64,000 nt of DNA from positions 1-64,000 of the IMG/VR virus record IMGVR_UViG_3300031087_000015. One strand, 5' to 3'. The notes under the pieces were generated by a model that had not been told where the DNA came from, made no database searches, and saw only the letters and a list, made by a program, of their open reading frames with translations. This document shows, piece after piece, positions 26,709-55,547 of the stretch. A program made the translations under genes and the position numbers. This stretch comes from a virus. How positions within the stretch are numbered: position 1 is the first letter of the stretch; every line of letters starts with the position of its first letter.

Positions 26709-26756
26709 GTAAGCTCCTCACGACTACGCTACCACTGTTTATTACTTAGCCCTTTA

Positions 26757-26772
26757 ATAATATGTATTTCAA
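26757..26772 (-). promoter_or_regulatory. Putative early promoter of nvRNAP beta gene
   Basis: TTGAAATACATATTAT, a copy of the recurrent motif. Confidence 0.65.
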
Positions 26773-26798
26773 GATATCCTTATCCAGTGGGGCCTCCA

Positions 26799-27143
26799 AT
26801 GACCTTGTCAGTTACCTCGTTACGTGAAGATTCTGGCGATGACATCTTCTACACCGAAGACTTCAGACGTATGATTGAACAGCATCGTATTTATTTACAG
26901 ACGGCCGACGGTTTTGACCACAGGGATATACCGGAAGGCGAAGCCTGGCGTTGGCGTTATGACTTCTATGGTTTACTCGCCAACCTTGACATCCCCGAGT
27001 ATCTGCGTTGGATTATTCTGCGTGTGAACGACATGACAAATCCAGCAGACTACAACGGTCTGAACACTACGATTTTAATACCGTCCTTTACTGTCATTCA
27101 AAACCTCGCTGCTATCTTCCGTAACCAGTACAGCACGAGTTGA
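26799..27143 (+). CDS. Small LysM/T4 gp53-like baseplate protein
   Basis: DFYGLL...WIILRVN.M.NP...ILIPS pattern; start moved to ATG 26799. Confidence 0.6.
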   Translation: MTLSVTSLREDSGDDIFYTEDFRRMIEQHRIYLQTADGFDHRDIPEGEAWRWRYDFYGLLANLDIPEYLRWIILRVNDMTNPADYNGLNTTILIPSFTVIQNLAAIFRNQYSTS

Positions 27144-27164
27144 CAAAATAAAAAGGTAATAGAG

Positions 27165-27194
27165 AGAGGCTGGGTTTCCCCAGCCTCTTATGCC
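27165..27194. terminator. Bidirectional terminator
   Basis: AGAGGCTGGG-tttc-CCCAGCCTCT followed by TATGCC, between convergent genes. Confidence 0.8.
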
Positions 27195-27199
27195 GTTAC

Positions 27200-28624
27200 T
27201 TAGCTGTAACTAGCGATCACACGACCAGGGTCGCGGTTGTATCCCTGGTTGCTGTTATACCCACCACGATTATCGTATCCGGTGTTGTAGCCGGAATTGT
27301 AGGTACTGCTTCCTGGGTAACCGGCCTGCTGGGGCTGACCGTAGCCGCGAGGTTGCTCATAACCACGTTGCTGAGGCGCGTAGCCGTAACCCTGCTGTGG
27401 TGGCTGACCATAGCCCTGCTGTTGCTGCGGGACATTGGCTGCCTGTACTTCATTCCACTTCAGAGTACCGCCGTTCGGTACAGACTGTGGTGCTGCCGCT
27501 GGTGAGCGATAGCCAGACTGAACCTGTGGTGCCTGAGGAGCAGCTGTCTGCGGTGCACCGTAACCTTGAGGGGCAGCCGGAGCCACGTTAGGTACAGATG
27601 GTGCCATTGGCTGAGTAGCCGGTACCACATCCTGTTCCAACGCCGTCGCGAACTTGCTCGCCAGATTAACTGCCGGACGACCAGCGGTATGAGTTTCAGC
27701 AACAGTTTCAGCTGCGTTAGCAACTTCCTGCTTATGCTTCTCTTCGATACCTACGTCACCTTCGTTAAACGGCAGTGGTGGGATTTCCAACGCCAGTTTA
27801 TCGATATTGGCCATCTCATCAGCCCAGCTCGTATCAATATAGATAGAGTCGTAGACTTCCAGATGCTTCTTCAGCTTCTTGGCATGTTTGTTAATGGCAT
27901 TAGCCAGATTAACATACGCGCCGATCAGTGAGTCGAAGTACGGTGCAGACTTACTGCTTGAACCGTAGTCATAGGTGTCGCTTGGTTCCAGCGAGTTAGG
28001 CAGCAGATATTCCAGCAGAGCCTGAATCTGTGTTTTGTCTGCAACACGCAGCTTAACACCGAACAGCTCTTTGGAATCATCGTGTGCCGCTTCTACCAGC
28101 GGGAAGCTCACTACAGCAACGCGGGCGTATTTCTCACCCTTCCACATCCCACCGCGTTTGAAGAAGATACGAACCAGACGGTTGTTTCCTTCAGCTTCGA
28201 TGTTGTCGATGATTTTACCCAACGCATTAGCCAGTTTGGCATCAGCGGTTGGCAGCGCACGCAGGAACTCCGACTCAGAGGCTTTCAGCTTCTGTTGATA
28301 ATCAACGTCGGCAGCGATCTCAACCATGCTCAACATCAGCAGAGACAGACTGTTCGTTATTTTGTTGATTACCGCAGTACGGAGCTTACGAAGCACCGGG
28401 GATTCACCACGGATGATGTTTTCAGAAAGTGGGTGGAAAGCTACCACACCATTCAGGCCGGTACCGCGCAGACGTTCTGGAATCGGCATGACCAGAGGAA
28501 GGTCATCTACCTTAACCACACGACTGTTCTTTTCGTCGAGGTGGAAACGAAGCGTACCATCCTCATCTGGTGGCAGATCTACACTGGTCACCAGTGGAAC
28601 GTACAGCTTTTCTACAACACTCAT
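27200..28624 (-). CDS. Conserved nucleus-block protein (phiKZ gp70-like) with Q/G/Y/P-rich disordered C-terminus
   Basis: 474 aa; position between PicA and nvRNAP beta; low-complexity tail. Confidence 0.6.
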   Translation of the reverse strand: MSVVEKLYVPLVTSVDLPPDEDGTLRFHLDEKNSRVVKVDDLPLVMPIPERLRGTGLNGVVAFHPLSENIIRGESPVLRKLRTAVINKITNSLSLLMLSMVEIAADVDYQQKLKASESEFLRALPTADAKLANALGKIIDNIEAEGNNRLVRIFFKRGGMWKGEKYARVAVVSFPLVEAAHDDSKELFGVKLRVADKTQIQALLEYLLPNSLEPSDTYDYGSSSKSAPYFDSLIGAYVNLANAINKHAKKLKKHLEVYDSIYIDTSWADEMANIDKLALEIPPLPFNEGDVGIEEKHKQEVANAAETVAETHTAGRPAVNLASKFATALEQDVVPATQPMAPSVPNVAPAAPQGYGAPQTAAPQAPQVQSGYRSPAAAPQSVPNGGTLKWNEVQAANVPQQQQGYGQPPQQGYGYAPQQRGYEQPRGYGQPQQAGYPGSSTYNSGYNTGYDNRGGYNSNQGYNRDPGRVIASYS

Positions 28625-28642
28625 AATTAATCCTTTTCGAAA

Positions 28643-30079
28643 TTAGCGGTAAGATACCGTGTTGATGTTTTCCATCAGACCCTGGATATCGCGAGCGATA
28701 ACACTGCGCTTGTTGGCATCCAGAGTGGCGATTGGTGTAGTCAATGCATCACACCACTGTGGGTTCTGGTAAGGCACCAGCGGACCACCGTTCAGGGATA
28801 TCTTGATTTCAGTATCGCCTAACAGATCACAGTATACTTCGAGGTGAGCCAACATCTGGTTACCGAAAGTGATACCAGCCATCAGTTCAGTTGCAACGCG
28901 ATGACAGAACGACTGAACTGCATCACGCATGTACGACTCATCCTGAGACAGAATCTTAGCAAAGCTCTGTGCGTCATGTACGATGATGGTATACGGCGTA
29001 CCGTTGTTTGGGTTAGGCATGTCGTTTGACATGGTAACAACCATCTTGGTAAACTTACCATCGTTCATCAACGTAGGCAGGGTACTTGCCACCATACGTG
29101 CAACAACGGTTTCGTTGGACACAGTATCCCAGTTCTCACTTTCACCACGACGTGCAATGAATGTATCGTGAGATACTGCAACACCACGGTTGAACGCTAC
29201 GTGAGTTGCGTTTTCCAGATCTGGGCGGAAGCGCAGCAGCTCACCCCAGGACACGCCATGACGATGCGACATATCGGTATTGTTCAGCAAGGTACCCAAT
29301 GATGCTAACTCATAGGGGTTGCGGTCTGCTACAGTTGCCTTAGCGGTTTTAAGTACGCTAGACATGTTCGCATCCTGCACGCTCGCGGAACTCAGTGCCG
29401 TTTTATACCCGCTCATAACGCGAGAGAGATAACTACCACTGTGGTTATTAGCGCGGTTAGACAGACGCGGTCCATCCAGTGCGATATTACGTGAATCGAT
29501 CGTGCGAAGATCACGGGCATCAGCAATGCCACCCAGTGCTGTAGTCAGACCGATACCGTCGAAGATATCCTGAGGTGCCAGATAGAACTGGTTTACCTCA
29601 CGACCCGGATTGAAATACCCCGGCATTACCTGGTTAGACTCACGGATATGCAGTCGCTTCTGAACCTGGCCATTTGGACCAATGCGATCCATCACCGTTA
29701 CCGATGTGATGCTGTTGATGAACAACATCATGTTCGGGTCCATTGTTTCGCTGCGAGTGATACCCATGTAATCGGTATACCCACTCAGGATATCAACCAG
29801 CACATTGCCGTTGGAAGATACCTGCTCAATCTCCATCATAAAGCGAAACTTCGGTTCGTTCCAACCATTGACGATGTTAACGCTTGCCTCAACTTTGGCA
29901 GACGGTCGCATAATCTCTGAACCCACAACAGATAGAGCTGGTACTGAAAGGTTTTCGCCAAGCTCAGTGGCGTGCTGAAGTTTAGCCAGGCTGTCTGCGC
30001 TAACACGAGTACCGTAGCTTGCTGACCACATGTCGTTGTAGGTACCGGTCTCTGTAAACAATACGCGACGAATAAACAT
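28643..30079 (-). CDS. picA: Probable phage-nucleus protein importer PicA/Imp1 (phiKZ gp69-like)
   Basis: 478 aa, directly downstream of the gp68-like gene in the conserved core block; assignment is mainly by synteny and size. Confidence 0.6.
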   Translation of the reverse strand: MFIRRVLFTETGTYNDMWSASYGTRVSADSLAKLQHATELGENLSVPALSVVGSEIMRPSAKVEASVNIVNGWNEPKFRFMMEIEQVSSNGNVLVDILSGYTDYMGITRSETMDPNMMLFINSITSVTVMDRIGPNGQVQKRLHIRESNQVMPGYFNPGREVNQFYLAPQDIFDGIGLTTALGGIADARDLRTIDSRNIALDGPRLSNRANNHSGSYLSRVMSGYKTALSSASVQDANMSSVLKTAKATVADRNPYELASLGTLLNNTDMSHRHGVSWGELLRFRPDLENATHVAFNRGVAVSHDTFIARRGESENWDTVSNETVVARMVASTLPTLMNDGKFTKMVVTMSNDMPNPNNGTPYTIIVHDAQSFAKILSQDESYMRDAVQSFCHRVATELMAGITFGNQMLAHLEVYCDLLGDTEIKISLNGGPLVPYQNPQWCDALTTPIATLDANKRSVIARDIQGLMENINTVSYR

Positions 30080-31650
30080 TATTCCTGTACTCCTGCTTTA
30101 TGATTATTAAGTTTGATGATGAACGCCGCTACCTGCACTTTGAAGTCCGAGGGAATCAGATGACCACCGGAGCGATACGGACGCATGGTGACTTGTGCCA
30201 AAAGTTCCTGTGGTGCATTGAGCAGATAAGGACGACCGTCAAATAGCGAAAAGAGTTTTTCTATCGCTATCATCGCAGCATTCTCAGAACGCTGCTGTTC
30301 ACCGGTATCTTTCTTTCCACTACTCCTTCTGTGGTAGAAGGGATACTGTTCTTTCAAGATCCGGAATTGCTCGTTTGTTACACGACTACGGGTATCCGTT
30401 CCGAAAACCATATCGTCGTCCATAATAGAAGGCTCAGCTGTTAATAAAGACGCCAAGTCGTAGAAGCCCCAGTGCCAATAAAGCGCCTGTGCTAATCCTA
30501 TCATGTTCACACGCTCTGGTTGTTCCAGGGCTGGAATGAAACGCGCTTTCAACGCAGCGTCAACTGCCCACTGCGTCAGCGCAATCTGACCATCGGTTGG
30601 CAGATATCCGTTATTGCGGCGCAAGTGGCCAACACACGCATCGACCATATCCATCGGTAGTGACGGATCAATAAGACGCCGTGCGTTTGCAACACCCTTT
30701 GCGTACTTCCATGCCAGCAGAAACTTATAGTCGTTGATCTGCTGCTTAACGATTATTTTCTCAGCTTGTGATTCCTTATCGTCATCACGATATTCCATCC
30801 CGTCCGGCTTCTTACGCACCTGACCATCAAACTTACGGTCAAGGCTAGTCAGGGTGGTTTCGATCTGACGGAAAATGTTTGAAACGATGTTAGTGCTTGA
30901 GTTGTACTGAGAGAACAGTTGACCATCTGGCCTTCTGTGCATTACAACACCGACACACACCTTTCGAATGAGTACTACACCAAATACCCAATCTTCCAGC
31001 TCAGCACTACCGATACCTGCGACGATTGCAGACATGGTAATCTTGGCTGTATCTACGTTCATGCGAACATAGCGTTGGAGCTTGTCATAGTCTGCGGTAT
31101 GAATCAGCTCCGTGTGATTCATCAGACCCATTGCCATGAACTCTTTGAAGTGAGTTCCTGACGTTTTCTTAGATTCGCGTACGAATAAGTTCCAGATTGG
31201 AATCATCGGACGCAGTGCTGTAACGAGACAGATTAGCCCCATGTAGTCGTCACGCAGATACGTGCGGTCAGAACTACTGTACTCACCCATCGCCGTTTGT
31301 ATCTCGTTTGGCACGATGATATTACAGTGCAAACGGACAAAGCGCGCAAGGTCAGCATATGACCAGCAACTGTACAATTCAGCAACCAGAGCCACTACGC
31401 GCTCGTGCAAACGAACATCGTTAAACGTCGTTAAGAACGCTTCTTCGATATCCGAATAGATACGCATGATACGATCTTGTACGTCATCAGGTAACGTACC
31501 CCAGAATGCATTGATGTCCATAAACAACTCACCCGTCGACGGGAAAGGTGTGCGGTCAAAGATGCTCCCCTCAGAGACAATTCTTTTCCCTTTATGCTCA
31601 ATGACAATGCCGGTCAATTTATCGCTATTGTCTAGCGGATAGATCTCCAC
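30079..31650 (-). CDS. nvRNAP promoter-specificity (sigma-like) subunit (phiKZ gp68-like)
   Basis: 523 aa, GTG start with GGAGGT SD, own early promoter, synteny. Confidence 0.7.
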   Translation of the reverse strand: MEIYPLDNSDKLTGIVIEHKGKRIVSEGSIFDRTPFPSTGELFMDINAFWGTLPDDVQDRIMRIYSDIEEAFLTTFNDVRLHERVVALVAELYSCWSYADLARFVRLHCNIIVPNEIQTAMGEYSSSDRTYLRDDYMGLICLVTALRPMIPIWNLFVRESKKTSGTHFKEFMAMGLMNHTELIHTADYDKLQRYVRMNVDTAKITMSAIVAGIGSAELEDWVFGVVLIRKVCVGVVMHRRPDGQLFSQYNSSTNIVSNIFRQIETTLTSLDRKFDGQVRKKPDGMEYRDDDKESQAEKIIVKQQINDYKFLLAWKYAKGVANARRLIDPSLPMDMVDACVGHLRRNNGYLPTDGQIALTQWAVDAALKARFIPALEQPERVNMIGLAQALYWHWGFYDLASLLTAEPSIMDDDMVFGTDTRSRVTNEQFRILKEQYPFYHRRSSGKKDTGEQQRSENAAMIAIEKLFSLFDGRPYLLNAPQELLAQVTMRPYRSGGHLIPSDFKVQVAAFIIKLNNHKAGVQE

Positions 31651-31688
31651 ATCAAACCTCCATTACTTACGCTAACCTTTACACTAAG

Positions 31689-31704
31689 ATAATATATATC
31701 TCAA
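31689..31704 (-). promoter_or_regulatory. Putative early promoter of gp68-like/picA operon
   Basis: TTGAGATATATATTAT. Confidence 0.7.
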
Positions 31705-32043: not shown

Positions 32044-32059
32044 TTTCTTCCCTTAGCAA

Positions 32060-32158
32060 AATAAGTCCCACGCCATTCCCTTTCGAGAATGGCGTGGTGT
32101 TTTGTGATGCACGTCTGTCGCCGTGCACTACCCTTCGAGCTGACATGGAGTTCATCTC
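32060..32158 (-). ncRNA. Candidate sRNA 'sR32'
   Basis: Promoter AAAAAATTAC with 19 nt to the G of TATG; hairpin with ACUCCAUG loop; second hairpin UGCACG/CGUGCA; terminator 32068-32097; no credible ORF. Confidence 0.55.
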
Positions 32159-32184
32159 ATACTAATAGAAAGGGTTGTAATTTT

Positions 32185-32673
32185 TTACTTCCCGTTAGTC
32201 CACGCGGTGTAATCAAACAGCTGAACTTCACCGCCGGTATTGGGATCGAACTGCATGGCAAACTCTACTGCCGCCTTAGCATCTTTCCCCATTTTCATGG
32301 CAGCGCGAGCGTAGGCAGACCCAGATCCCACAGAATCGGTTAGAATAGGCTCACCGAGTACGAAGGCATAGTCTTCGTCGGTATATAACCAATGTCCCTT
32401 TCCATCCTCAGTTACGAGAATGGCAGTGAAATCCACTTTATCAGGCACTGGCGTCAGTGCGGTTAAACCTTCTTCCAGTAGCGCCTTTAAAATCCGGCAC
32501 CCACCTGCCGTTCCAGCACATGCAAAAGCTACGGCACCTACACCATCATAACTGTGCTTAGCTGGATCGACCATCAGAAGCTTCATTGCTTTGTCTGTGG
32601 TGATACCCATGCCCGTTGAGGTCTCACGGCTATCAGCAGCAAGTATGTTACCATCCCACGCAATTGTCGTCAT
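32185..32673 (-). CDS. Ntn-hydrolase, HslV/proteasome beta-like peptidase
   Basis: N-terminal (M)TTIAWDG..LAADSR, K at about position 31, AGT, GSGS, DPNTGG. Confidence 0.8.
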   Translation of the reverse strand: MTTIAWDGNILAADSRETSTGMGITTDKAMKLLMVDPAKHSYDGVGAVAFACAGTAGGCRILKALLEEGLTALTPVPDKVDFTAILVTEDGKGHWLYTDEDYAFVLGEPILTDSVGSGSAYARAAMKMGKDAKAAVEFAMQFDPNTGGEVQLFDYTAWTNGK

Positions 32674-33886: not shown

Positions 33887-35305
33887 CTAGAAAGGAATAC
33901 TTTCATCAAATGACACAGGTGCGCTATCGCGACTCAGAACCTGAGGCTGCTGGACTTCGCCATTCGGGTTACCGCCTGAATGCTGCTGTCCACCACTCTG
34001 GGACTGATTGTTTCCGCCGCCGTACTGGTTGTTTCCCTGGCCACGGTTATTGTTGTTGCCATTACCGTTTCCGTTGTTGTTCCAGTTACGTTGCTGGCCA
34101 CCACCCTGGTTATTATTGTTCCAGTTGCGCTGTCCGCCCTGTTGGCCACCCTGCTGACGATTACCCCAGTTGTTGTTGCCGTTACCACCCTGACGGTTGT
34201 TAGTCCACTGAGACGTATCAGGCTGAACGTAGTTGCTATTCAGGTGCTTAGCCACAGAACGTTCCAACACTGACTTATAGCTGATAGCCATCAGTGCAGA
34301 AACGCGGTCAGGTGACATTGGATTACTGTTCTCATCCAGCAGTGCGTAGCGACGATGAGACTGAAGAGGGAACTGAAGGTTAGGACGTGAGCGGTCCTGG
34401 TCGAGAACGGCGATGTAGATAACACCCTGTTCGTTCTTACCAACAACCATAGTCGTTTCGTGAACCTTCTCACCCCAACGACCATTCTGCTGCTTAGGTC
34501 CGTTACCGTAGTTCTTAATACCACGACGCCAGCCAGCAGGAGCACTGACTGCCTGACCCAGCAACTGACAATAGGCGTAGAATACTGGCGCGTCGATCTT
34601 ACCAGCAATCATGCCTTTGTTATTATGCTGATCTGCTTCGATGTTGGTAAACACCGTGGCACGAGGGTTGTTTGCGATACTACCGAATACCAGTGACGGC
34701 GGACGACCTTCAACGGTACGCTGGTCAGTTTCAGTATAGAAACGAACCTGATAGTCTTTAAGCAGGTCAGAGGCAAGGTCTTCGACCATCTCACACCACC
34801 CCAGCGCGTAACCATCTGCTAGCTCGGCTGTGCTCAGCTCGCGACCCTCTCCATCCACGATACGATGGTAATCGCTTGGACGGAAGTAGAACTCCAGATC
34901 GGCACGGTTGTAGGAGCGCAGAACCAGACGAACATCGGCGTCACCTGCGTCACGTACGATATCCAGATCGAACTGCCACATCGGACGTTCAGAACGTTGA
35001 CCACGAATAAATGAATGGTCTTCGTGCTTTACAGTGCGTTTAAATGGACCTTTACAGGACACGGCAGCACGCACCAGCGCAGTGATCATAAACAGCACAC
35101 TGATGTCGCCACGTCCAGAGATCATACCGTTACCACGATCCCCTTCGATGTTGCTATACGCTTTGATAGACACATCATTTTTGTCGTTAATGGTGAAAGC
35201 AAACGTTGGTGCTTTCTTAGCCCCATCCACAGGGCGTCCAATCAAGCGAGTCTTAAACTCGCTGAGGATATTACGCTGTGCGGGTTTCTGTTCATTGTCA
35301 GACAT
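33887..35305 (-). CDS. chmC: Probable ChmC-like (Whirly-fold) nucleic-acid-binding protein, tandem duplicated domain with N/G/Q-rich tail
   Basis: Position in the core block between the SbcD cluster and gp68; N/G-rich disordered tail; internal repeat; start at ATG 35305 with GGAG SD. Confidence 0.6.
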   Translation of the reverse strand: MSDNEQKPAQRNILSEFKTRLIGRPVDGAKKAPTFAFTINDKNDVSIKAYSNIEGDRGNGMISGRGDISVLFMITALVRAAVSCKGPFKRTVKHEDHSFIRGQRSERPMWQFDLDIVRDAGDADVRLVLRSYNRADLEFYFRPSDYHRIVDGEGRELSTAELADGYALGWCEMVEDLASDLLKDYQVRFYTETDQRTVEGRPPSLVFGSIANNPRATVFTNIEADQHNNKGMIAGKIDAPVFYAYCQLLGQAVSAPAGWRRGIKNYGNGPKQQNGRWGEKVHETTMVVGKNEQGVIYIAVLDQDRSRPNLQFPLQSHRRYALLDENSNPMSPDRVSALMAISYKSVLERSVAKHLNSNYVQPDTSQWTNNRQGGNGNNNWGNRQQGGQQGGQRNWNNNNQGGGQQRNWNNNGNGNGNNNNRGQGNNQYGGGNNQSQSGGQQHSGGNPNGEVQQPQVLSRDSAPVSFDESIPF

Positions 35306-40931: not shown

Positions 40932-42425
40932 TTAATCTTCCCCGTACAGCCAGTTAGCAGCTGTGGCCAGGATAGGTGCCGGTATCGTGATGTTACCGGA
41001 TATCTTACGTGGTTGACCTACATCCAACACACCTACGTGTGGGCGCAGTGGTTCCAACATACGACGCATGTAACGGTCAGTAATCAGCTTACCGTTGAGT
41101 GCATCACCATCGAAGTCTGCGTTGAAGCTGACCAGGATAAGCACGGAGATGCCGATCGTTACATCTTTCAGGTCTGTCTTCACTTTCGTGATTTGCAGTA
41201 ACTGAATGGACTTAGACGACAGGGTTGGGTTACGGTTCAGCAACATGGCTGGACCTTTGTCATCTGAATCCGCGATGATCTTCTTAAAGAGGTCATCAAT
41301 CTCCTGGTCGTAGTGCATGGTTGCCCAGTGCAGACGCCGTTCGATCTCATTAGGGTTCAGGCCCTGTGCAGTGAGGTAGTTAGCAATGTGTACCGTAAAG
41401 ATACTCACAGCCAGACCCCATGGTAAATGTACTTCTTCGTAATGGTGCGGTTCAGTGATTGAACTGATTACAGCACGGAACGAGAAGTCTTGGCGTGAAC
41501 CAACACCATGTTTACGGTTCCACCCGCGTTTGGTACCCAGGGAGTCACGGAACTGAATAGCATAATAGCTAGACAGTTGTTTAACCGCTAACACACAACG
41601 GTTCTCACACTTTGTCTGTGAGAGTGGCATTGGTGTAGCACGGATACTGGCGATAGATCGAACTGCATCCAGCGCTGTGCCCGCTGGCGTCTCATTGGAA
41701 TACGTACCGGTTGGGGTATGCTCCATGACAATAGCCAGTTTATTGGGTATCGGTAAGAACTTACAGAATAACCGCGACCGGTTCATCTGAATGAACTCAC
41801 GCATCTTGACACGCATACCTGGCGCGATAGAACGAATGGTTTTACCGTCTGTCAGCAGCTCCATAATCCCATCGAAGTTCTCAATGAAATTATTCAATCC
41901 GCGACGGAAGGGTTCGCCGTTACGCATAGTGTATCCCTGCATGATGTCGAACACTTGCAGGTTATCGCTTTGCGGTCTGTAGCTAGAACTAACCAGCCAC
42001 TCTAAAACGTTGTTGCCGCTGAAGGTTAACAGCTTTGAGAATATCGCCCAGAAGACCGGATTGATTAAACCATGCACCCCCTCAGGTGCTGCAATCCAGA
42101 CATTCGATTCTATCGGTCTCTCTGTGGCAGGGAGTACCATATAGGAGCAGTCTTCGCAGATCTTACCAACGAAGCGTTCGCCTTTCCATTTACCACAGTC
42201 ACAGGACGGCAGTATTGGCAGCGTATCGCCTTTGTAGTTGGTAATCAGTAGTGCGTTGAGCTTCTCTTTCCCTTCAACGGTAGAGGAATCAATGTCGTTA
42301 ACAATAGTCGGACGACAAGACAGCAACGTGATTTCTTTATCGAAGTCCGTTACTTCTTGACTGATGCCGTACTCAATGGGAAGTGAATCCGCATTGATTG
42401 TTAACATAAAGTCTCTTACGCGCAT
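40932..42425 (-). CDS. Non-virion RNA polymerase beta' N-terminal catalytic subunit (phiKZ gp55-56.1-like), uninterrupted
   Basis: Catalytic NADFDGD, NRNPTL, RQDFSFRAVI, Zn ribbon CDCG...CEDC; SD GAGGT. Confidence 0.93.
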   Translation of the reverse strand: MRVRDFMLTINADSLPIEYGISQEVTDFDKEITLLSCRPTIVNDIDSSTVEGKEKLNALLITNYKGDTLPILPSCDCGKWKGERFVGKICEDCSYMVLPATERPIESNVWIAAPEGVHGLINPVFWAIFSKLLTFSGNNVLEWLVSSSYRPQSDNLQVFDIMQGYTMRNGEPFRRGLNNFIENFDGIMELLTDGKTIRSIAPGMRVKMREFIQMNRSRLFCKFLPIPNKLAIVMEHTPTGTYSNETPAGTALDAVRSIASIRATPMPLSQTKCENRCVLAVKQLSSYYAIQFRDSLGTKRGWNRKHGVGSRQDFSFRAVISSITEPHHYEEVHLPWGLAVSIFTVHIANYLTAQGLNPNEIERRLHWATMHYDQEIDDLFKKIIADSDDKGPAMLLNRNPTLSSKSIQLLQITKVKTDLKDVTIGISVLILVSFNADFDGDALNGKLITDRYMRRMLEPLRPHVGVLDVGQPRKISGNITIPAPILATAANWLYGED

Positions 42426-42506: not shown

Positions 42507-44702
42507 TTACTGACCGTACCAGATGTTGCCAGACTGTGGTGCAGCCGGACCACGGTTGCTACGAGCCGGAGAGCTGTAACCGTAGGTGGTCAGGTTGTTC
42601 TGAGGCTTAGCGCCCTGGCCGAATTCGTTAGCGTAAGAGAACGCCATACGATCGTCACCACGCGCAACACGGTCAGCTTCAACCACGTTGATAGTAGTGC
42701 CACATTCAGCGATTGCGTTAGCCAGCGCGTACAGGAAGTGTGCGTTGAAAGTGATACGGTTAGCGTAACCAGTGATGGTTGCGTTAGGTACCAGCTCCAT
42801 GATGATCTTCTCACGCTCTTCCAGAGACAGCGCTTCGTTACCGTTGTAGCTCGCCATCGCATTAGCCCATTTCTGAGCAATGGTGCTGCCGTTCTTACCG
42901 GTCTGGTTCAGAACTGCCAGGTGGTCGATGTTACGCAGGTCAACCAGCTGATCGTTGTCCGGATAGTGACCCAGGTGTACGCGGGTTACTTCGTTTGCAA
43001 CAATCTTGTTGTTCTCACCGAAGTGGCGAGAGAACGCATTGCCGGTCAGTGCATCAGCAGCACGACGGATGTACGAACGAGCAGCTTCACCTTCAGGACC
43101 TTTGTCCGCACACGCCAGCAGCGCAGCTTCCATCCAGGTCAGGTCGCCAGCTTCTTCGATATCCATGCTGTACAGCAGGTTATCTTCCACAGTGTGGTTC
43201 AGGAAGTCAGGCAGGTTGAAGGATTTATCCTGAGTATCGATCTTAGCACGCTGGCCAGGTACGAACTCATGCTCGTAGCCCAGAGCACCGATGTCGTGAA
43301 TATCTTCGACGCCGCGCTTAGGCTGGAACGCATTGATCCAGTTGTAGTTAGAACCCAGAACAGTGGAGGTCGCCAGAGTCAGCAGCATTTCGCCGACGTT
43401 GATGACTTTGCCCATTGGACGGTTACGCGTGATGACCATGCGTGGGAACCATACTACTTTCGCATTCTGCGGAATGCCGTAGCTTGCGTAGGTCTGCTGA
43501 CCGTTGTTGTCCATGCGAGGTGGTGCGTACACCAGATCGATAAACGCGGCCAGTGCAGTTACCGGACGGGTAGCTACGTTCTGAGTCAGGTTGGCAGTCG
43601 CTTTGTTGCCAGAGCGAATGGTAGTTTGCAGCACTACGTCAGAACGGATTGGCAGACCAGCTGCGGTTTCCATTGCGCGAGCACCCCAGACAGCCTGAGC
43701 ATGCAGAGTCTGTGCGATCTTCTCGAAACGACCATCACCCAGAGGTTTAACCAGGCTCAGGAATTTCTGAGAACCGAAGCGCACGTCAGCGGCGGTGTTC
43801 AGTGCACCCAGTGCGAAGAACAGCAGGTTACGAACGTACTTAGCGTTTTCCGGATCTTTCAGGTCCAGAGACTTAGGTACGACGTTAACGCCGGCAGACA
43901 GTACTGCTTCTTTGGTGTTCAGCACGCGCTGGACGTGGCTGGTGATCAGCTGCGCTACCGCATCGTTGAAGATATCGCCGGTTACAGATGCGATCTGGAT
44001 GCTGTAGTTGCCCATGTTGTAGCTGCGACGCTCCAGCGGCTCTGCGCTTTCCATCAGCAGGGTGAATAGCAGTGGGATACGACGACCGTCTTTCTGTGCG
44101 TGCATTACAACACCCAGGGCGTTGCATGGCAGACCCAGAGTTGCCGCTTCCAGAGTCAGGAACATCGGCTTACCGTATGCGCCTGATTTAGAGCTGGCCG
44201 GATCGTTGTCGATGATGTTCTCAGCGATCTTCTTGAACTCGTTGACGTCTACCGCGCCAGAGTTCAGACCCAGCGTACGATCCATGTTGCTGTAAGAGTC
44301 ATCCAGACCGTAAGTTCCGAAGTTCTGTGACATGTTCTTTTCCTCTTTATATGTGTTCTGAGTGTTTTGTGATGCTACGGGTGCCACGCGAGCGGGCTGG
44401 ATTGTTTCGCGGTGTTGACGCGCTGGTTCAGCATGCGGAGTGTGATGTTCCGCACGGTCTACCAACACACCTTCCACTGGTTGGGGTTCTTTCGGTTGCT
44501 GTTGTGCAGCAGCCTTCTGCTGATTGAGATTAGTAGCCGTTTTGACTACAGTCTCCGCCAGATGCGTTTCGCTATCTTTAGCTACCGCATCAAGAAAAGC
44601 TGAACCTAAGCTGCCAACGTGTCCGGTGTCATCAGACTTAATTGGCTCTTCAACTTTCGGCTTTTCAGATTGGTCTTTATCTTTATCGTGGACAAGTGCC
44701 AT
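42507..44702 (-). CDS. chmA: Chimallin, major phage nucleus shell protein; alternative start at 44333
   Basis: Immediately upstream of nvRNAP beta'N; motifs FPRMVIT, DIEEAGDLTW, VHLGHY...DLRNIDHLAVLN; strongly biased codon usage; TATATTAC promoter. Confidence 0.85.
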   Translation of the reverse strand: MALVHDKDKDQSEKPKVEEPIKSDDTGHVGSLGSAFLDAVAKDSETHLAETVVKTATNLNQQKAAAQQQPKEPQPVEGVLVDRAEHHTPHAEPARQHRETIQPARVAPVASQNTQNTYKEEKNMSQNFGTYGLDDSYSNMDRTLGLNSGAVDVNEFKKIAENIIDNDPASSKSGAYGKPMFLTLEAATLGLPCNALGVVMHAQKDGRRIPLLFTLLMESAEPLERRSYNMGNYSIQIASVTGDIFNDAVAQLITSHVQRVLNTKEAVLSAGVNVVPKSLDLKDPENAKYVRNLLFFALGALNTAADVRFGSQKFLSLVKPLGDGRFEKIAQTLHAQAVWGARAMETAAGLPIRSDVVLQTTIRSGNKATANLTQNVATRPVTALAAFIDLVYAPPRMDNNGQQTYASYGIPQNAKVVWFPRMVITRNRPMGKVINVGEMLLTLATSTVLGSNYNWINAFQPKRGVEDIHDIGALGYEHEFVPGQRAKIDTQDKSFNLPDFLNHTVEDNLLYSMDIEEAGDLTWMEAALLACADKGPEGEAARSYIRRAADALTGNAFSRHFGENNKIVANEVTRVHLGHYPDNDQLVDLRNIDHLAVLNQTGKNGSTIAQKWANAMASYNGNEALSLEEREKIIMELVPNATITGYANRITFNAHFLYALANAIAECGTTINVVEADRVARGDDRMAFSYANEFGQGAKPQNNLTTYGYSSPARSNRGPAAPQSGNIWYGQ

Positions 44703-44758
44703 CTTTTCATTCCTTAAACATTGCAATGTTTTCGGTTAGTCCTATACCAACCACTAAG

Positions 44759-44774
44759 GTAATATATACTTGAA
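44759..44774 (-). promoter_or_regulatory. Early promoter of chmA
   Basis: TTCAAGTATATATTAC contains the phiKZ early consensus TATATTAC exactly. Confidence 0.75.
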
Positions 44775-44836
44775 AAATCTTTGGAACTACCCCATAGGGC
44801 ATTGTGCCCGGTTAGGGGCACCCGCAGATTTCTCTA

Positions 44837-44870
44837 CATAGTATATGTCAAAATCTGGAGAACTTTTTTA
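44837..44870 (-). promoter_or_regulatory. Possible second (middle/late) promoter upstream of chmA
   Basis: AAAAAAGTTC...ATATACTATG; resembles the sRNA promoter layout, but spacing is slightly longer. Confidence 0.35.
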
Positions 44871-44971
44871 GAATGACTTATATAACCCTAGAAGAGTCTG
44901 ACCTTGCGGGTCAGTAAGCTCTCTATATTATAGAGCAGTCAGTGTAAAAAATTACCTAAGGTGGAGGTTTC

Positions 44972-46113: not shown

Positions 46114-48240
46114 TTAATGGCGATCAGATATCAAATTACTAATGCGGTCGTCAACGTTAATATAGTAACCTAATGATTCCAATACCAGGTAGTACGCCTC
46201 CATCGTGTTATAGATGATTTTACGCACGTCGATGATACGGGTGATCTCAGGTGGTACACCAGATGACATGACGATGTTTGCTGGCAGCATGATCGTTGTC
46301 ATTGATGTCTTGTCGTAGCGAGCTGCCCAGGTTTTCAGACGCTCGGCCAGGTCCTTATCTTCGATACCTTCAATCCATCCATTGAAGCCAGTTTTGTTAT
46401 TGGCTGCTACTGATGCTTTGATGGCGAAGAACGGAGGTGGATCAGAATGGCCGTATTTATCGGCAAATACCTGCTCCCACAACTCGTAATACGCATACGG
46501 TGAACTTTCTGGTTTGGTATAGAACTCAGGAGCTTTAACCTGTGCTGTGGTTAAGTAACGAGTCTCACCGTTCAGAATACTGTTCTGGATCTCACGCTCA
46601 CGATCGGCAACATCTTTGAGGATCTGCTGCAAATCGATCTGCTCACCGCGAAGGATGGTATCCATGATATCACGGATAAGCTGGGTAGCGCCATTCATGA
46701 TCTCGTCTGGCACTTTGGAGTTCTTAAGCGTTACGCCTTTGACTTCCAGCTCAGGTTCAGTATACACGTTGCCTTCACGCGCTGACATGTATGCAAAGTA
46801 GTGCTTAGCACGCGGTGTCAATGCGAATACAGGGAACATATATTCGTTCTTCATGGAGACCTTGTGGATCTTCTCCGTAACAATACCCATGTTACCAGAG
46901 ATAACTGCCAGGTAATGCTTAACCAGCTGGGAACTGAAATACACCACGATACTTGCGATATCGTTAGATGTTTCAGTGAAGTCCAACTGACCGCGATACC
47001 AGATTGCCCAGTCCTGTACAGTAAAGATGGTTGAGTCAGTATCTGACACGACCGCAGTACGACGAACAGACGACGGGAAGTCTGCAAGTGAGGCAGGAAC
47101 GTTGTCAGTTACCATGAAAGCAGCGTAGTAGGTTGCATACGAAGCAATAGCATCCATTACACCCTTAGCGATAGAAGCAACTTTCTGTAAACGTTCGCCG
47201 TCTTCTTTAACCACGTCCCAAATAGTCGAGCCATTCAAGATGCTACCACAGTAAAGACCAACCAATGCAAACTGGTCGTCATCCAGCGCTTTAATAACAG
47301 CCACCGGATCTTCTACTGGCTCAGTGCGCTTAGTAATCAGACGCGTTAACATCTCACGCATGAACGCCGGGTTGAACTCTTTCAGGTTCCACAGGTCGCC
47401 CATATAACAGAACGCAGCCCGTTGAATTGGTGACAAGCGACTAACCAGTTCAGCAACTTGTGCAAACTTGTCATCAGCGCGCCAATACAAATCGGTAGAG
47501 CGCTTAATGGTGGCCAGGGTTTCTTCAACAGAGGGATAATGAAGATTGAACTCATCCATTGCACGCTGGATCTTCACGTAGTCTGAGTTAGAGACAATCG
47601 AGATGATATTGCTCAGCGTGATATCCAGGTTGTAGTAATGACGGTTGCCGGTAATGAAGCGCTCGTTAGAGGCGTTAGCGGTACCCGATGCAGAACGACA
47701 CACTGAAGTCAGAGTTGAGTGTGAGGACTTATTGTAAAGTGGGGTAGATGCCGATGCGTGAGCACCTGACAAACTGTTGTTCTTTACCTTATAAGTCGTT
47801 TGCAGAATGTTGAAGAAAGTTTTACCTGCTTTGTCACCCGCCATATCAGCAAGGAACATCTTCTTCTTAACATCCTTACGTTTGGCCAAGTTCAATAAGA
47901 TATATTCGGCCAGCAGTGAACGCTTCTCAGCGGGGTTAAAGTAAACTGCCATAGTTGGAGACATGATGCAATTGCGCTCACTCACGGTACGCAGATAACC
48001 CGATACGGTACCTGTATACACATCGCGGTTGCCTTCTGTCTCTTTAGCCAGGTACAGAACACGAGGATCTTTAAACTCATGGCTACCACCAGGACTAATT
48101 GCCGCTTTGACTTTCTCATAGCACTCTTCGTACGGTAATCCTTTCTTAATAGAAAGATACGAAGCTGCGTCGTGCAAGTAGTGCTTAACCATATCAAGGT
48201 CACGACCGTATGACTCTTGTGGTTGTGTAAATAACTGCAT
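46114..48240 (-). CDS. Split family-B DNA polymerase, catalytic subunit with motifs B and C (phiKZ gp50-like)
   Basis: KVKNNSLSG (motif B), SDTDS (motif C), KHY, LEVKGV; start at ATG 48240 with GAGGA SD. Confidence 0.88.
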   Translation of the reverse strand: MQLFTQPQESYGRDLDMVKHYLHDAASYLSIKKGLPYEECYEKVKAAISPGGSHEFKDPRVLYLAKETEGNRDVYTGTVSGYLRTVSERNCIMSPTMAVYFNPAEKRSLLAEYILLNLAKRKDVKKKMFLADMAGDKAGKTFFNILQTTYKVKNNSLSGAHASASTPLYNKSSHSTLTSVCRSASGTANASNERFITGNRHYYNLDITLSNIISIVSNSDYVKIQRAMDEFNLHYPSVEETLATIKRSTDLYWRADDKFAQVAELVSRLSPIQRAAFCYMGDLWNLKEFNPAFMREMLTRLITKRTEPVEDPVAVIKALDDDQFALVGLYCGSILNGSTIWDVVKEDGERLQKVASIAKGVMDAIASYATYYAAFMVTDNVPASLADFPSSVRRTAVVSDTDSTIFTVQDWAIWYRGQLDFTETSNDIASIVVYFSSQLVKHYLAVISGNMGIVTEKIHKVSMKNEYMFPVFALTPRAKHYFAYMSAREGNVYTEPELEVKGVTLKNSKVPDEIMNGATQLIRDIMDTILRGEQIDLQQILKDVADREREIQNSILNGETRYLTTAQVKAPEFYTKPESSPYAYYELWEQVFADKYGHSDPPPFFAIKASVAANNKTGFNGWIEGIEDKDLAERLKTWAARYDKTSMTTIMLPANIVMSSGVPPEITRIIDVRKIIYNTMEAYYLVLESLGYYINVDDRISNLISDRH

Positions 48241-48302
48241 TTTATTTTCCTCACTGTTTACTACGCATACCATCAGCAAGGAAAGTAAAAAAAGAAAAGA
48301 GG

Positions 48303-48409
48303 CATAAAAAGACGGTCCCCGAAGGGACCGTCGAAACGCGCTATTTAAGGAATGTGTACAGCCTAAGGTCCCCCGTTACCCGTAGCGCCCCTGACACAGA
48401 CTGTAACAC
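48303..48409 (-). ncRNA. Candidate sRNA 'sR48'
   Basis: Promoter AAAAGTTGTTAC with 20 nt to the G of TATG; 5' stem GUGU(U)ACAGUCU/AGGCUGUACAC; unpaired AUUCCUUAAAUA; UUCG terminator 48311-48332. Confidence 0.6.
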
Positions 48410-48418
48410 ATATAATAG

Positions 48419-48838
48419 TTAATTTACAGTAACAACTTTTGCCACTTTATTACCGGTGGTAGCAATTGCTGCTGTAATCGCGTTGATGACGTCCTGGTTA
48501 CAGTTCTCGACGTAGAACGCCATGGTGTTATTATCGATAACGGTGATCGAGGCTGGGATAATGTACGGTAAGCCTACGAAGTCTACCGATCCATTGGCCA
48601 GTCTAACCTTTAACCAGTTGTAGTCATCGGCACTAGCTGGGGTACCAGCAGGCAGTGTACCGTAAACATTGGCGTGAATAGCGTACGGATCAAATCCCGC
48701 TTGTTTAACCGAGTCTGCATCAACGATACCCAGGATTTTGCAACCGCTGTAATCTGTGCGGATGATGTTCTGGGTTTGTTGGTACAGAGAGAAGTTCACG
48801 GTGTCGCGGATATTTGCTTTGCCTAACACATCCATCAT
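48419..48838 (-). CDS. Conserved small protein (phiKZ gp49-like, SH3-like beta fold)
   Basis: 139 aa, GGAG SD, immediately upstream of the DNA polymerase gene. Confidence 0.65.
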   Translation of the reverse strand: MMDVLGKANIRDTVNFSLYQQTQNIIRTDYSGCKILGIVDADSVKQAGFDPYAIHANVYGTLPAGTPASADDYNWLKVRLANGSVDFVGLPYIIPASITVIDNNTMAFYVENCNQDVINAITAAIATTGNKVAKVVTVN

Positions 48839-52000: not shown

Positions 52001-52073
52001 GACGCTATCCTCAAGTTTAAAATGCTAAAAACCCTCTTACTCATAAATTTGGGGTTAACAGTAAATAAATACC

Positions 52074-52104
52074 GGCATAAAAGCTCCTGAAATTAATCAG
52101 GAGC
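52074..52104 (-). terminator. Terminator
   Basis: GCTCCTGA-aattaa-TCAGGAGC followed on the - strand by TTTTATGCC. Confidence 0.8.
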
Positions 52105-52110
52105 GATTTT

Positions 52111-52605: not shown

Positions 52606-52835
52606 TAACTGAGTCCTATGCCGTTTGCCCTATTACAAACAATGTCGCACTTAGGATCGTATTCCTCACGGGGGAACTGACCATGCCACTCACCTGGGAC
52701 TTGCTCACCGTCCACAATGTTGTCTCGACAACGGGAACATAAGAACGTTCCTGGAGGCAACGCCACTGCATCAGGACTAGCTAAATCCGTGTCGTCTACG
52801 CATCCACAATTATCGCAACAAAATAACATGATCAT
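52605..52835 (-). CDS. Small Cys-rich Zn-finger protein
   Basis: CDNCGCVD...LCSRC...GEWHGQFPR; GGAGGA SD. Confidence 0.7.
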   Translation of the reverse strand: MIMLFCCDNCGCVDDTDLASPDAVALPPGTFLCSRCRDNIVDGEQVPGEWHGQFPREEYDPKCDIVCNRANGIGLS

Positions 52836-52860
52836 ATCCTCCGATTAAGTACGCTGTGTC

Positions 52861-52876
52861 GTAATATAGTACAAAA
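52861..52876 (-). promoter_or_regulatory. Putative early promoter
   Basis: TTTTGTACTATATTAC (exact TATATTAC). Confidence 0.6.
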
Positions 52877-52891
52877 TGAAAAAGGAATATA

Positions 52892-52913
52892 AGAGGGGAC
52901 CGAAGTCCCCTCT
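52892..52913 (-). terminator. Terminator
   Basis: AGAGGGGAC-cgaa-GTCCCCTCT. Confidence 0.75.
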
Positions 52914-52915
52914 AT

Positions 52916-53353
52916 TTAGTCTGCCAACAGTTTTTCAACTTGTTGACCAAAGCCTACGGTGGAGAAGGTCTGACCGTCGAAGTTTACAACACTGTATTCT
53001 GGGCGAACTAACTGCGCAACCAGTTTGGATGCACTGGTATAGTCAACTGGAGTGTAAGCCGTATTTTGCTTGCCTTCCATACAGAACTTCTTAAAGGCGA
53101 TCTCTTGCCCATTGACGACATACGACTTGTAGACGTCTTGTGCAAAATCACAACGTGCTGGTTGGTTTGCTGGGTAATAATAGAAAGCTAAGCCACGGTC
53201 ATTCTTTTCACTGACGACCGTGGTTAGTTCTAATTGTGCGCCAGAATTATCGCTGGTAACGCCGACGGTGCCGGTATCGATTGTTTTCCACTCATTGGCA
53301 TAAGCGGTAGCGGACAGAGACAGAACAACCAGAGCAATCAGTGACTTCTTCAT
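52916..53353 (-). CDS. Secreted/periplasmic protein
   Basis: Sec signal peptide MKKSLIALVVLSLSATAYA; one Cys pair. Confidence 0.75.
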   Translation of the reverse strand: MKKSLIALVVLSLSATAYANEWKTIDTGTVGVTSDNSGAQLELTTVVSEKNDRGLAFYYYPANQPARCDFAQDVYKSYVVNGQEIAFKKFCMEGKQNTAYTPVDYTSASKLVAQLVRPEYSVVNFDGQTFSTVGFGQQVEKLLAD

Positions 53354-53371
53354 TTTACTTCCTTATTAGAG

Positions 53372-53692
53372 TTAATTTAACGCGTCACCCAGACGGGCGC
53401 GCAGTACGTTTATGGAACGTTCAATATCGGGGGCTGTGGCTATATTAAAGCAAATGTTCTTCACGGTAGGGTGTGCAGCTTCATTACCTTTGCGAATAGC
53501 CAAATTCCGTAAGGTTTGTTCGTCTGCATCATTTAGGATAGCCAAACTCATGATGTTGAGTATGTCCCCGATCGTGTTCACTACATCCACTGTTTCATCC
53601 CGGCCCATCCGGGGCTTTTTAGCCCCGGTAGGACTGGCAGTGCGTTTCTTCTTACTGCCCTTCTTCGACATGGCGTTTACCCAACATCTCAT
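53372..53692 (-). CDS. Hypothetical basic protein (start possibly 53671)
   Basis: ORF in operon with a K-rich N-terminus. Confidence 0.6.
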   Translation of the reverse strand: MRCWVNAMSKKGSKKKRTASPTGAKKPRMGRDETVDVVNTIGDILNIMSLAILNDADEQTLRNLAIRKGNEAAHPTVKNICFNIATAPDIERSINVLRARLGDALN

Positions 53693-54281
53693 CGAAAACT
53701 TTGTTCAGTTCCAGATGGCGATTGTCACGGATGCCTTTGTATTTAACCGTGATGGTCATGGCATCAGTACCTTTGGCAACCAGGAACTGTGACGAATACT
53801 GCTCACCCAGCTCAGCGATCTTATCCATCATGTCTGCGAAGTGATACAGATGTGACGGCTCAGCCTGATCAACCAACAGATAGGTCAGCTTGATATCTTT
53901 ACGCAGTGAAGGCATGAAGGTCTTCGACGCATACTCATGTACAATGTTCACACGAGCAAGAACCGCATTACCTTCAAAGTCGGCCACCGTGGAGACCACA
54001 CCTAACACCTGCCACTTAGCGGCGGTGAAGCCGGTGAACGCCTGCTCATTAGGGATCATCAGCAGACGCGGTGTGAAGTTATACATCTGACGCCAGAACT
54101 CAGACAGGTCGAACTCAGGCTTATCGTGCAGAACGGTGTAGCGCTCAACCTTAGCGTGCTCGATCTGAATCAGCGCTTCGCCGCCAGCTGCTTCAACGAT
54201 CTCTACCGCAGTCGCATCTTCCAGCAGAACTTTCAGAGAGATTGGGGTAAGGCTATTCAGAACAACGTCAACTACTTTCAT
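53652..54281 (-). CDS. Hypothetical protein
   Basis: 209 aa with GGGAG SD. Confidence 0.7.
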   Translation of the reverse strand: MKVVDVVLNSLTPISLKVLLEDATAVEIVEAAGGEALIQIEHAKVERYTVLHDKPEFDLSEFWRQMYNFTPRLLMIPNEQAFTGFTAAKWQVLGVVSTVADFEGNAVLARVNIVHEYASKTFMPSLRKDIKLTYLLVDQAEPSHLYHFADMMDKIAELGEQYSSQFLVAKGTDAMTITVKYKGIRDNRHLELNKVFDEMLGKRHVEEGQ

Positions 54282-54778
54282 TTAATGCTCCCTATTTGCC
54301 GGCATTCATCCAGCAGGATATCGAAATTAATGGGTTCGTGGGTTTTAGTAATAGCTGCTGTCTTTGGCGCAAACGAATCCGTACCAAAGACTAGACCGCT
54401 TTTAACATGAACATTGGGGCGGTATGTAAATATCCACCTATCTCCAATGGTAATATATATCCCACGTTTTAATGGAACGTTCCTGGCGCGGTTGGCACCA
54501 AAGCCCAGCTGACCGTCCTGGTACCATACGAGTTCGTCATTATGGCACTCGGCGTATTTACGCAGGCACATCTTAATCAGACCATCGCGTCGCCACTTAT
54601 CGGCGTAGTCACCTAACCCAAACAAAACCACCGAGTTCTTAAAAGCAGCAATAACAACATCACCGTATACGTGGTATTCTCGAGTTAGGGTTACAATGGC
54701 ACCGCTAGATGTTTCCGCCGAAATCTCCCTCAGAGACCCGCACGGTATCATTGACAGGGACACTGAGCTTTTCGCCAT
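54278..54778 (-). CDS. Hypothetical protein
   Basis: 166 aa; start uncertain. Confidence 0.55.
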   Translation of the reverse strand: MAKSSVSLSMIPCGSLREISAETSSGAIVTLTREYHVYGDVVIAAFKNSVVLFGLGDYADKWRRDGLIKMCLRKYAECHNDELVWYQDGQLGFGANRARNVPLKRGIYITIGDRWIFTYRPNVHVKSGLVFGTDSFAPKTAAITKTHEPINFDILLDECRQIGSIK

Positions 54779-55376
54779 TTTCGTCTTTTTCCATTTTGAT
54801 CAACATGTTGTACGCCAGAAATGCGCGGGTCAACATCGCCTCGCGCTGGTAGCCGTTGCCAGGCAAGTAAGCCGTAGCCGCACGGCGGATGTGCTCACAC
54901 AGTGGTGTACCTTCACCCCACCATTTATAGGCTTCGATGCTTGCCTCTAATTCTTCATCAGTGAAGTGGTGTTTGGGGGAGAGCTGCATTACCACACTGA
55001 GATCGTTCAGGTAACCCAGCACACCATGATCGGTATAGAGATGGTCCGGGATATCCATCAGTCCCGTACCAAGACTGATTACTTTCGAATAGGTAAGTGC
55101 TCTCACTACTTCGCTTTTCATCAGGGTGAACTGAAGAACGCTATCGAATTTCAGGACTACAATGTCGCCAATCCAACTGTCCTGAACATCGACGTCGATA
55201 TCGCGATCAACCAAACCCATCGCTGACAGCAACCCGTTAAGGTATTCGCGCACCGGAGTTACACGAATATAACTCTCTGGCAGTTCGTAGCTCAATTCTT
55301 TCGATTCGTTAATGATGCCTTGAACTAACTCAGCCATTTTGCGCTGGATCTTTAAGTAATCTTCGTTGGTTTCCAT
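54705..55376 (-). CDS. Hypothetical protein
   Basis: 223 aa with AAGGA SD. Confidence 0.7.
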   Translation of the reverse strand: METNEDYLKIQRKMAELVQGIINESKELSYELPESYIRVTPVREYLNGLLSAMGLVDRDIDVDVQDSWIGDIVVLKFDSVLQFTLMKSEVVRALTYSKVISLGTGLMDIPDHLYTDHGVLGYLNDLSVVMQLSPKHHFTDEELEASIEAYKWWGEGTPLCEHIRRAATAYLPGNGYQREAMLTRAFLAYNMLIKMEKDENGEKLSVPVNDTVRVSEGDFGGNI

Positions 55377-55399
55377 TTTGGTTCCTTAATTGAGAAAGG

Positions 55400-55508
55400 G
55401 CATAAGGGGTACCCAATTAAGGGTACCCCTAGCGGCAGCGTAAGTAATGGAGGTGAGGGTCAGCGCGTGAGGTCGCTTTACTGCAATTGAGGGATTACAG
55501 TTTTCTCC
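55400..55508 (-). ncRNA. Candidate trans-acting sRNA 'sR55' (antisense to nvRNAP subunit RBSs)
   Basis: Promoter AAAAAATTAC with 20 nt to the G of TATG; two hairpins with CCUCA loops; 18-nt perfect complement of the gp68-like RBS; terminator 55405-55430. Confidence 0.72.
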
Positions 55509-55547
55509 ATATAATACAGGCATTTATGTAATTTTTTACAAACTGGG

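Follow-up and report, generated by a model that had tools for sequence, protein, structure and literature searches.

In the opening 64 kb of a viral contig of 142,016 bp (IMG/VR record IMGVR_UViG_3300031087_000015), three gaps between minus-strand genes are filled by units, here called U1, U2 and U3, in which a promoter and a terminator enclose about 100 nt free of open reading frames (ORFs). The question raised by these units is whether they encode small RNAs (sRNAs) and, if so, which messages would be their targets. The 64,000-nt stretch is referred to as the window; counts given for the contig span ∼142 kb. Chimallin and a divergent family-B DNA polymerase are encoded in the window, and the source virus is a nucleus-forming jumbo phage of the Chimalliviridae. 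The complementarities described below suggest that U3 and U2 are trans-acting, base-pairing sRNAs, with U3 feeding back on the synthesis of the phiKZ-type non-virion RNA polymerase (nvRNAP); judged from sequence, this reading is slightly favoured. The predicted target assignment is strong for U3 and moderate for U2, and there is none for U1.

A sequence-only reading of the same DNA had described three ORF-free units with a common promoter layout, a length of ∼100 nt, stretches complementary to the Shine–Dalgarno sequence (anti-SD stretches) and a terminator, and this description was confirmed by motif and fold analysis. The motif TATTA(G)TATG was found at four sites in the contig, all on the minus strand, and three of these lie in the window (32167-32158, 48417-48409 and 55516-55508). 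TTAC stands upstream of each site, at a distance to the G of TATG of 19 nt (U1) or 20 nt (U2 and U3). Each unit (∼105 nt) has a stable predicted fold (z -3.0 to -5.5), followed by a GC-rich hairpin and a U-rich tail, and C/U-rich anti-SD stretches are present in U1, U2 and U3. At the sequence level all three have the build of an sRNA, with their own promoter, an intrinsic terminator and no conserved ORF. Rfam gave no match at gathering score in the 64 kb, and a tRNA scan of the window gave none at the units. In anatomy the units are genuine features of the sequence and of a kind already known; the predicted targets of U3 and U2 are new and testable. The units are as follows.

55398-55539, minus strand: U3 unit; promoter GTAAAAAATTAC-N16-TATG (55539-55508), RNA of ∼111 nt from the G at 55508 (55508-55398)
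55430-55405, minus strand: U3 terminator hairpin, followed by TATGCC
55437-55454, minus strand: U3 seed ACCUCCAUUACUUACGCU, in the unpaired linker
48305-48432, minus strand: U2 unit; promoter GTTGTTAC-N16-TATG, which overlaps the SH3DP gene stop; RNA of ∼105 nt from the G at 48409 (48409-48305)
32056-32188, minus strand: U1 unit; promoter GTAAAAAATTAC-N15-TATG, RNA of ∼103 nt from the G at 32158 (32158-32056), terminator hairpin 32097-32068

The predicted targets of U3 are leaders of nvRNAP genes. Four of the five subunits of this polymerase were found to be encoded in the window by comparison with PDB 7OGP, and the region at the stop codon of the beta-C gene overlaps the start of the beta'-C gene.

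30079-31650, minus strand: PHIKZ068-like (gp68-like) nvRNAP subunit (PDB 7OGP chain B, E 1.9e-38)
24522-26708, minus strand: PHIKZ071-like nvRNAP beta subunit (beta-C; PDB 7OGP match)
22513-24525, minus strand: PHIKZ074-like beta'-C gene (PDB 7OGP match)
40932-42425, minus strand: PHIKZ055-like nvRNAP beta'-N gene (to 42436 including the ribosome binding site, RBS; PDB 7OGP match)
31656-31697, minus strand: gp68-like leader; early promoter ATATATTAT (31697-31689), U3 target AGCGUAAGUAAUGGAGGU (31673-31656)
26709-26760, minus strand: beta-C leader, after the early-like ACATATTAT; three U3-complementary patches (UAAGUAAU, AGCGUA and CGUGAGG)

Nucleotides 55-72 of U3 are an 18-nt perfect complement of 31656-31673, which lies 24 kb away at -23 to -6 relative to the gp68-like gene and covers its GGAGG SD. 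The duplex of the seed with this leader has a predicted energy of -30.2 kcal/mol, the mean predicted unpaired probability of the seed is 0.76, and the chance expectation of the 18-mer is ∼4e-4. Targets were scored in an accessibility-aware manner (cofold minus the two single folds) over 179 start regions (312 in the relative pEa_SNUABM_54, introduced below). Unconstrained duplex energies drew on structured parts of the RNAs and were therefore replaced by cofold and exact-match statistics. By net cofold the gp68-like leader (-28.0 kcal/mol) and the beta-C leader (-24.5 kcal/mol) ranked first and second of 179 for U3 (mean -6.3, sd 4.1); the match to the beta'-N leader in the window is weak (6-8 nt). 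A 13-nt complement is reached by ∼1% of random 105-mers and, non-trivially, by none of 58 other intergenic segments. Complementarity exceeds chance for U3 and U2 and does not for U1: accessible seeds with such matches were found in U3 (18 nt) and U2 (13 and 11 nt) and were not found in U1.

The relation was followed into other phages. The one close relative in culture is Erwinia phage pEa_SNUABM_54 (DNA ∼70% identical); gp68 protein identity to other Chimalliviridae is 28% or less. Sequences G001, G002, G003 and G004 from further phages were also compared, of which G001 and G004 are probably one phage split over two contigs. In the pEa_SNUABM_54 record the counterpart of U3 stands at 214423-214530 and that of U2 at 220991-221098. 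U3 aligns in three phages, with 91% identity in G001 and 71% in pEa_SNUABM_54; its stems covary, and a 10-codon ORF at its start is lost in pEa_SNUABM_54. An IMG/VR pattern search for U3 homologs returned G001 only, and a search for relatives of the 223-aa gene downstream of U3 returned none. The linker of U3 in pEa_SNUABM_54 has diverged to UUCCACUACUU, and the gp68, beta-C and beta'-N leaders of that phage carry 8-nt perfect complements of it (UAGUGGAA, AAGUAGUG and GUAGUGGA). The three leader matches were obtained in none of 5000 dinucleotide shuffles of the pEa_SNUABM_54 linker, and their summed length was reached in four of 5000. The U3–nvRNAP relation recurs, then, in a second genome in which both linker and leaders have changed, and because the letters differ this recurrence counts as an independent replicate; it is the strongest argument for function. 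Conservation of seed and target was found for U3 and U2 across two or three genomes and is weakened by G001/G004.

The same data bear on a different explanation, in which the shared sequence is a site on double-stranded DNA or a protein-bound motif in the nvRNAP leaders, present in inverted form in U3 (a phage regulator's operator, for instance), and pairing of RNA is irrelevant. It draws on the facts that several nvRNAP gene leaders share one motif within each phage and that on duplex DNA an inverted copy is the same site. In phiKZ, too, the gp68 leader and the region just upstream of gp71 have an 11-mer in common (TCTACATTGGT; AF399011 58001 and 63216), so nvRNAP subunit leaders share a motif there as well; no sRNA partner was found, the sole complementary copy lying within the PHIKZ111 coding region and no complementary intergenic RNA being detected. 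All leader copies are, however, sense-oriented and lie beside the SD within transcribed 5′ untranslated regions (5′UTRs), the single inverted copy coincides with the unpaired linker of a unit that is structured and ends in a terminator, and G-U positions are tolerated in the beta-C pairing, which is sensible at the RNA level only. A DNA site is regarded as improbable. A further proposal, that host mRNAs or factors are the main targets of the RNAs (chaperone titration, mimicry of the 16S anti-SD) and that the matches to phage leaders are secondary, is considered very improbable: the seeds are C/U-rich and anti-SD-like, and phage sRNAs acting on host functions have been reported (bioRxiv 10.1101/2024.10.31.621285), but the U3 match continues for 13 nt outside the anti-SD core, in sequence that is particular to the phage leaders.

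Two observations were made beside these genes. A 177-nt gap (contig 67359-67535) is complementary over 11 nt (CGCUAACCUUU) to the gp68-like leader at -30 to -20, adjoining the U3 site; an 11-mer is within chance. In close relatives X3 and X5, from two public runs, 1.4-1.5 kb of extra DNA lies inside the beta'-N gene (window 41099-41106) and recalls the intron/endonuclease insertion beside phiKZ gp55/56.

For U2 the predicted targets are the start region of the chimallin gene (chmA) and that of a conserved 153-aa gene. The features concerned are these.

48332-48311, minus strand: U2 UUCG terminator, plus UUUUUAUGCC
48340-48354, minus strand: U2 seed CAUUCCUUAAAUAGC, containing the invariant UUCCUUAAAUAGC; predicted unpaired probability 0.89
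48266-48296, minus strand: second promoter past the U2 terminator (T-rich, TAC-N15-TATG), kept in four phages, driving the DNA polymerase gene 46114-48240
42507-44702, minus strand: ChmA (chimallin) gene (PF25677, E 2e-37; phrog_4795)
44708-44767, minus strand: chmA leader; early promoter TATATTAC (44767-44759), covarying 5′ hairpin, U2 target UGUUUAAGGAAUG (44720-44708, covering the SD)

U2 has an 11-nt complement at the chmA RBS (13 nt with U-G and A-U), 3.6 kb away, and a 13-mer complement at the RBS of gene 131935-132438 of the contig. By cofold the 153-aa gene ranked first (-17.9 kcal/mol) and chmA second of 179 (-16.0). The orthologous 153-aa gene is the top U2 target in pEa_SNUABM_54 as well (17 bp with one bulge, -22.7 kcal/mol), where chmA ranked sixth of 312; the best conserved U2 target is the 153-aa gene and not chmA. 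At the edge of the U2–chmA duplex the window has C in U2 and G in chmA, and pEa_SNUABM_54 and G002 have G and C, which is one compensatory swap. Among four phages the region of the transcription start site (TSS), the UUCCUUAAAUAGC linker and the second promoter of U2 are invariant within flanks that are ∼70% identical, the terminator stem changes by compensatory pairs, and the chmA leader is as conserved as U2. The conserved second promoter for the DNA polymerase gene past the terminator makes U2 a self-contained unit.

Upstream of chmA, a 245-bp divergent region (window 44727-44971) is highly conserved in pEa_SNUABM_54 and G002; it contains a promoter-like site (GTAATTTTTTAC-N16-TATAG), two hairpins, one of them followed by AATGCCC, and the early promoter last. 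A promoter of the main class described below (45181-45151), located in an opposite-strand gene, is directed at chmA.

U1 had been proposed to act on the leader of chmC, and this was not borne out.

33887-35305, minus strand: ChmC-like protein with two tandem gp67-like domains (BLASTP against phiKZ gp67)

The label ChmC-like itself held, as two regions of the protein were aligned to phiKZ gp67 by direct BLASTP (E 8e-16 and 3e-10), and phiKZ gp67 is ChmC (PMC11077065); a PDB sequence search with the protein gave no match. An N/G/Q-rich tail follows the two gp67-like domains, whereas phiKZ ChmC is single-domain. As a U1 target the chmC leader was rejected at rank 26 of 179. The beta-C leader ranked 6 and the chmA leader 168 of 179 for U1, and no exact complement of U1 was present at any RBS. 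A 14-mer match to chmA was discarded as lying on the wrong strand, and 13-mer matches as lying in a coding region or on a gene-free strand. One such 13-mer (TGACATGGAGTTC, complementary to U1 nt 6-18) occurs on the plus strand at window 11065-11077 and at contig 106974-106986; one copy is within a second DNA-polymerase-like gene (9785-11485), and the U3 seed has a 9-nt complement in the start region of that gene. At the position of U1, pEa_SNUABM_54 has a unit built in the same way but with a different sequence. The evidence gives no backing to a wider circuit that takes in U1 and ChmC; the chaperone role suggested for the ChmC-like protein, and any role of Hfq or ProQ, are speculative, and nothing connects that protein with the RNAs.

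The case of U1 leads to the question of whether the units act in cis only, as 5′ leaders with leaky terminators (attenuators) or as the shared terminator of an upstream gene combined with an internal promoter, the short RNAs being by-products. Outside the window a TTAC...TATTATATG site opens a fourth unit, ORF-free over ∼230 nt (contig 73650-73430), which ends with a hairpin and TTATGCC ahead of gene 72940-73416; no start region is complementary to it over more than 10 nt. The promoter layout is not private to the units but belongs to a wider class (GTA-W6-TAC-N15/16-TATG; the U2 promoter is without the GTA part) with ∼12 sites in 142 kb, mostly intergenic, the others of which stand 30-45 nt upstream of ordinary genes. 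The usual intergenic order in this genome is stop, hairpin with TTATGCC, promoter and RBS, and U1-U3 reverse it (promoter, ∼100 nt, hairpin). The 3′ ends of U1 and U3 lie 12-25 nt ahead of the next RBS, as expected of leaders, and the same build is that of premature 5′UTR termination in phiKZ and 201phi2-1 (PMC10914365, PMC11512511). U1 and U3 have the layout of the phiKZ-type 5′UTR-derived noncoding RNAs (ncRNAs), with a TSS, a terminator in the 5′UTR of the next gene and less than 250 nt between, and U1 is kept by position, not by sequence, in pEa_SNUABM_54 and is without a target. U2 departs from this layout by its conserved second promoter past the terminator, which action in cis only leaves unexplained, as it does the invariant unpaired linker of U2 among diverged flanks, the 18-nt perfect match of U3 24 kb off and the recurrence of that match, with letters changed, in a second genome. 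Action in cis only is judged rather unlikely.

Several findings tell against trans-acting RNAs. U1 and U3 adjoin genes without a separate upstream-element promoter past the terminator and could be leaders, and U1 has no target above background among the 179 start regions by cofold or exact match. In pEa_SNUABM_54 the TATG of U3 is lost, the cofold ranks of the nvRNAP leaders for U3 are merely 8, 11 and 30 of 312, and the U3 sites lie upstream of the SD (-24 to -17 and -42 to -35), so that neither the common descent of these sites nor the sign of regulation is certain. Three uncompensated changes in the G001/G004 gp68 leader split the 18-mer into 9 and 6 with U3 unaltered. A counterpart of the U3–nvRNAP relation was not found in a quick search of phiKZ. 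The seed of U2 is largely a generic anti-SD for the common TAAGGAA of this phage, and a distant U2-like unit in G003 keeps AUUCCUU and has no match to the G003 chmA start region.

The sequence-only reading had further held that three of the best targets (gp68-like, beta-C and chmA) are the first genes after TATATTAY early promoters. This is correct for the gp68-like gene and chmA, which follow ATATATTAT and TATATTAC, and has to be relaxed for beta-C, which follows the one-mismatch variant ACATATTAT. Enrichment was calculated for an early set of eleven first genes after early-type promoters, defined post hoc. Mann–Whitney p values were weak per unit (0.30, 0.03 and 0.10), and the best score over the three units gave p 0.002. 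As a class, early genes are modestly enriched; the real enrichment is narrower and concerns nvRNAP leaders for U3.

Nucleus-forming jumbo phages keep transcription apart from translation. The course of events that we infer in such a cell, from transcription of the units and its timing to RNA export out of the phage nucleus and the sign of regulation, would be as follows. Each unit would start at a TATG-type promoter, by analogy the kind used by nvRNAP in phiKZ, and each RNA would end at the intrinsic terminator, with a C/U-rich unpaired linker between the 5′ structured domain and the terminator. The U3 linker would pair with the leaders of early mRNAs, namely gp68-like, beta-C and, in the relative, also beta'-N, and beta'-C would be reached through its reading frame overlapping beta-C. 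The duplex of U3 with the gp68 leader of the window covers the SD and may block 30S binding, with or without duplex-dependent decay, which would amount to negative feedback of nvRNAP on its own synthesis. The UUCCUUAAAUAGC linker of U2 would pair with the SD regions of the chimallin mRNA and of the mRNA of the conserved 153-aa gene. An extended version for one clade of nucleus-forming jumbo phages, in which the sRNAs made by nvRNAP pass from the nucleus to the cytoplasm and pair there with early mRNAs, so that the U3 loop and the turn-down of chimallin by U2 after completion of the shell form an RNA-based early-to-middle switch co-evolving with the leaders, is put forward tentatively and is doubtful.

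The T4 endoribonuclease RegB inactivates the early mRNAs of its own phage, once they are unneeded, by attacking the GGAG of the SD. This is a functional analogy, as RegB is a protein nuclease of broad specificity, whereas an antisense RNA with gene-specific extended pairing is proposed here. The lambda OOP and P22 sar RNAs are phage RNAs that repress phage mRNA by pairing; they are cis-encoded and fully complementary, unlike U2 and U3, whose predicted targets are 3.6 kb and 24 kb away. The papers searched contained no account of a jumbo phage whose sRNA targets the mRNAs for its polymerase or shell. Enterobacterial base-pairing sRNAs, among them UTR-derived ones with an internal promoter such as MicL and DapZ (PMC9438474), resemble the units in size, in an architecture of seed, single-stranded linker and Rho-independent terminator, in an SD-covering seed for trans-encoded mRNAs with several targets per RNA and in a terminator shared with the neighbouring gene. 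The RNAs proposed here would differ from these in coming from a phage multisubunit RNA polymerase, presumably in the phage nucleus, and in being directed against the early mRNAs of the phage itself.

Within the family, ONT-cappable-seq gave 17 short 5′UTR-derived or intergenic ncRNA candidates in phiKZ and 11 in 201phi2-1 (PMC10914365, PMC11512511). Short RNAs are abundant in both phages, and northern blots confirmed two of those of phiKZ (PMC10914365); one is conserved ahead of the gp182 homologs, and no targets have been assigned to these RNAs (PMC10914365, PMC11512511). The units in the window resemble them in having a TSS at a phage promoter and an intrinsic terminator at 250 nt or less, in standing ahead of a gene, in the absence of an SD-led ORF and, for some, in being kept by position among relatives. 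They differ in that no target was proposed there, whereas here two units have statistically supported complementarity to leaders.

The analysis bears on how nucleus-forming jumbo phages shut off early genes and balance their own polymerase subunits, and for phage RNAs of this class it offers the first hypothesis that names concrete targets. The predicted pairs (U3 with nvRNAP leaders, U2 with the chimallin RBS) can be tested in cultured pEa_SNUABM_54 on Erwinia amylovora. If they are correct, a lytic phage would regulate its own RNA polymerase through a trans-acting sRNA, and small-RNA export out of the phage nucleus would be implied.

Some further features of the promoters and terminators were recorded. 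Terminator hairpins throughout the contig carry a fixed tail, (T)TTATGCC(G), often followed by a T-rich stretch (CTTTTCTTTTTT) and TAC-N15-TATG, and the TATG within the TTATGCC tail might also serve as the start site of the next gene. In many metagenomic Chimalliviridae of distant relationship (38-47% protein identity), the module of hairpin, TTATGCCG and T-rich stretch precedes the gene for DNA polymerase. Window 57426-57655 holds a main-class promoter (GTAATTCTTTAC-N16-TATG) and, between it and gene 57069-57425, a structured leader of ∼200 nt free of ORFs. At window 52190, relatives from three runs have a 12-nt insertion (CATATGGCCCCA) relative to the window.

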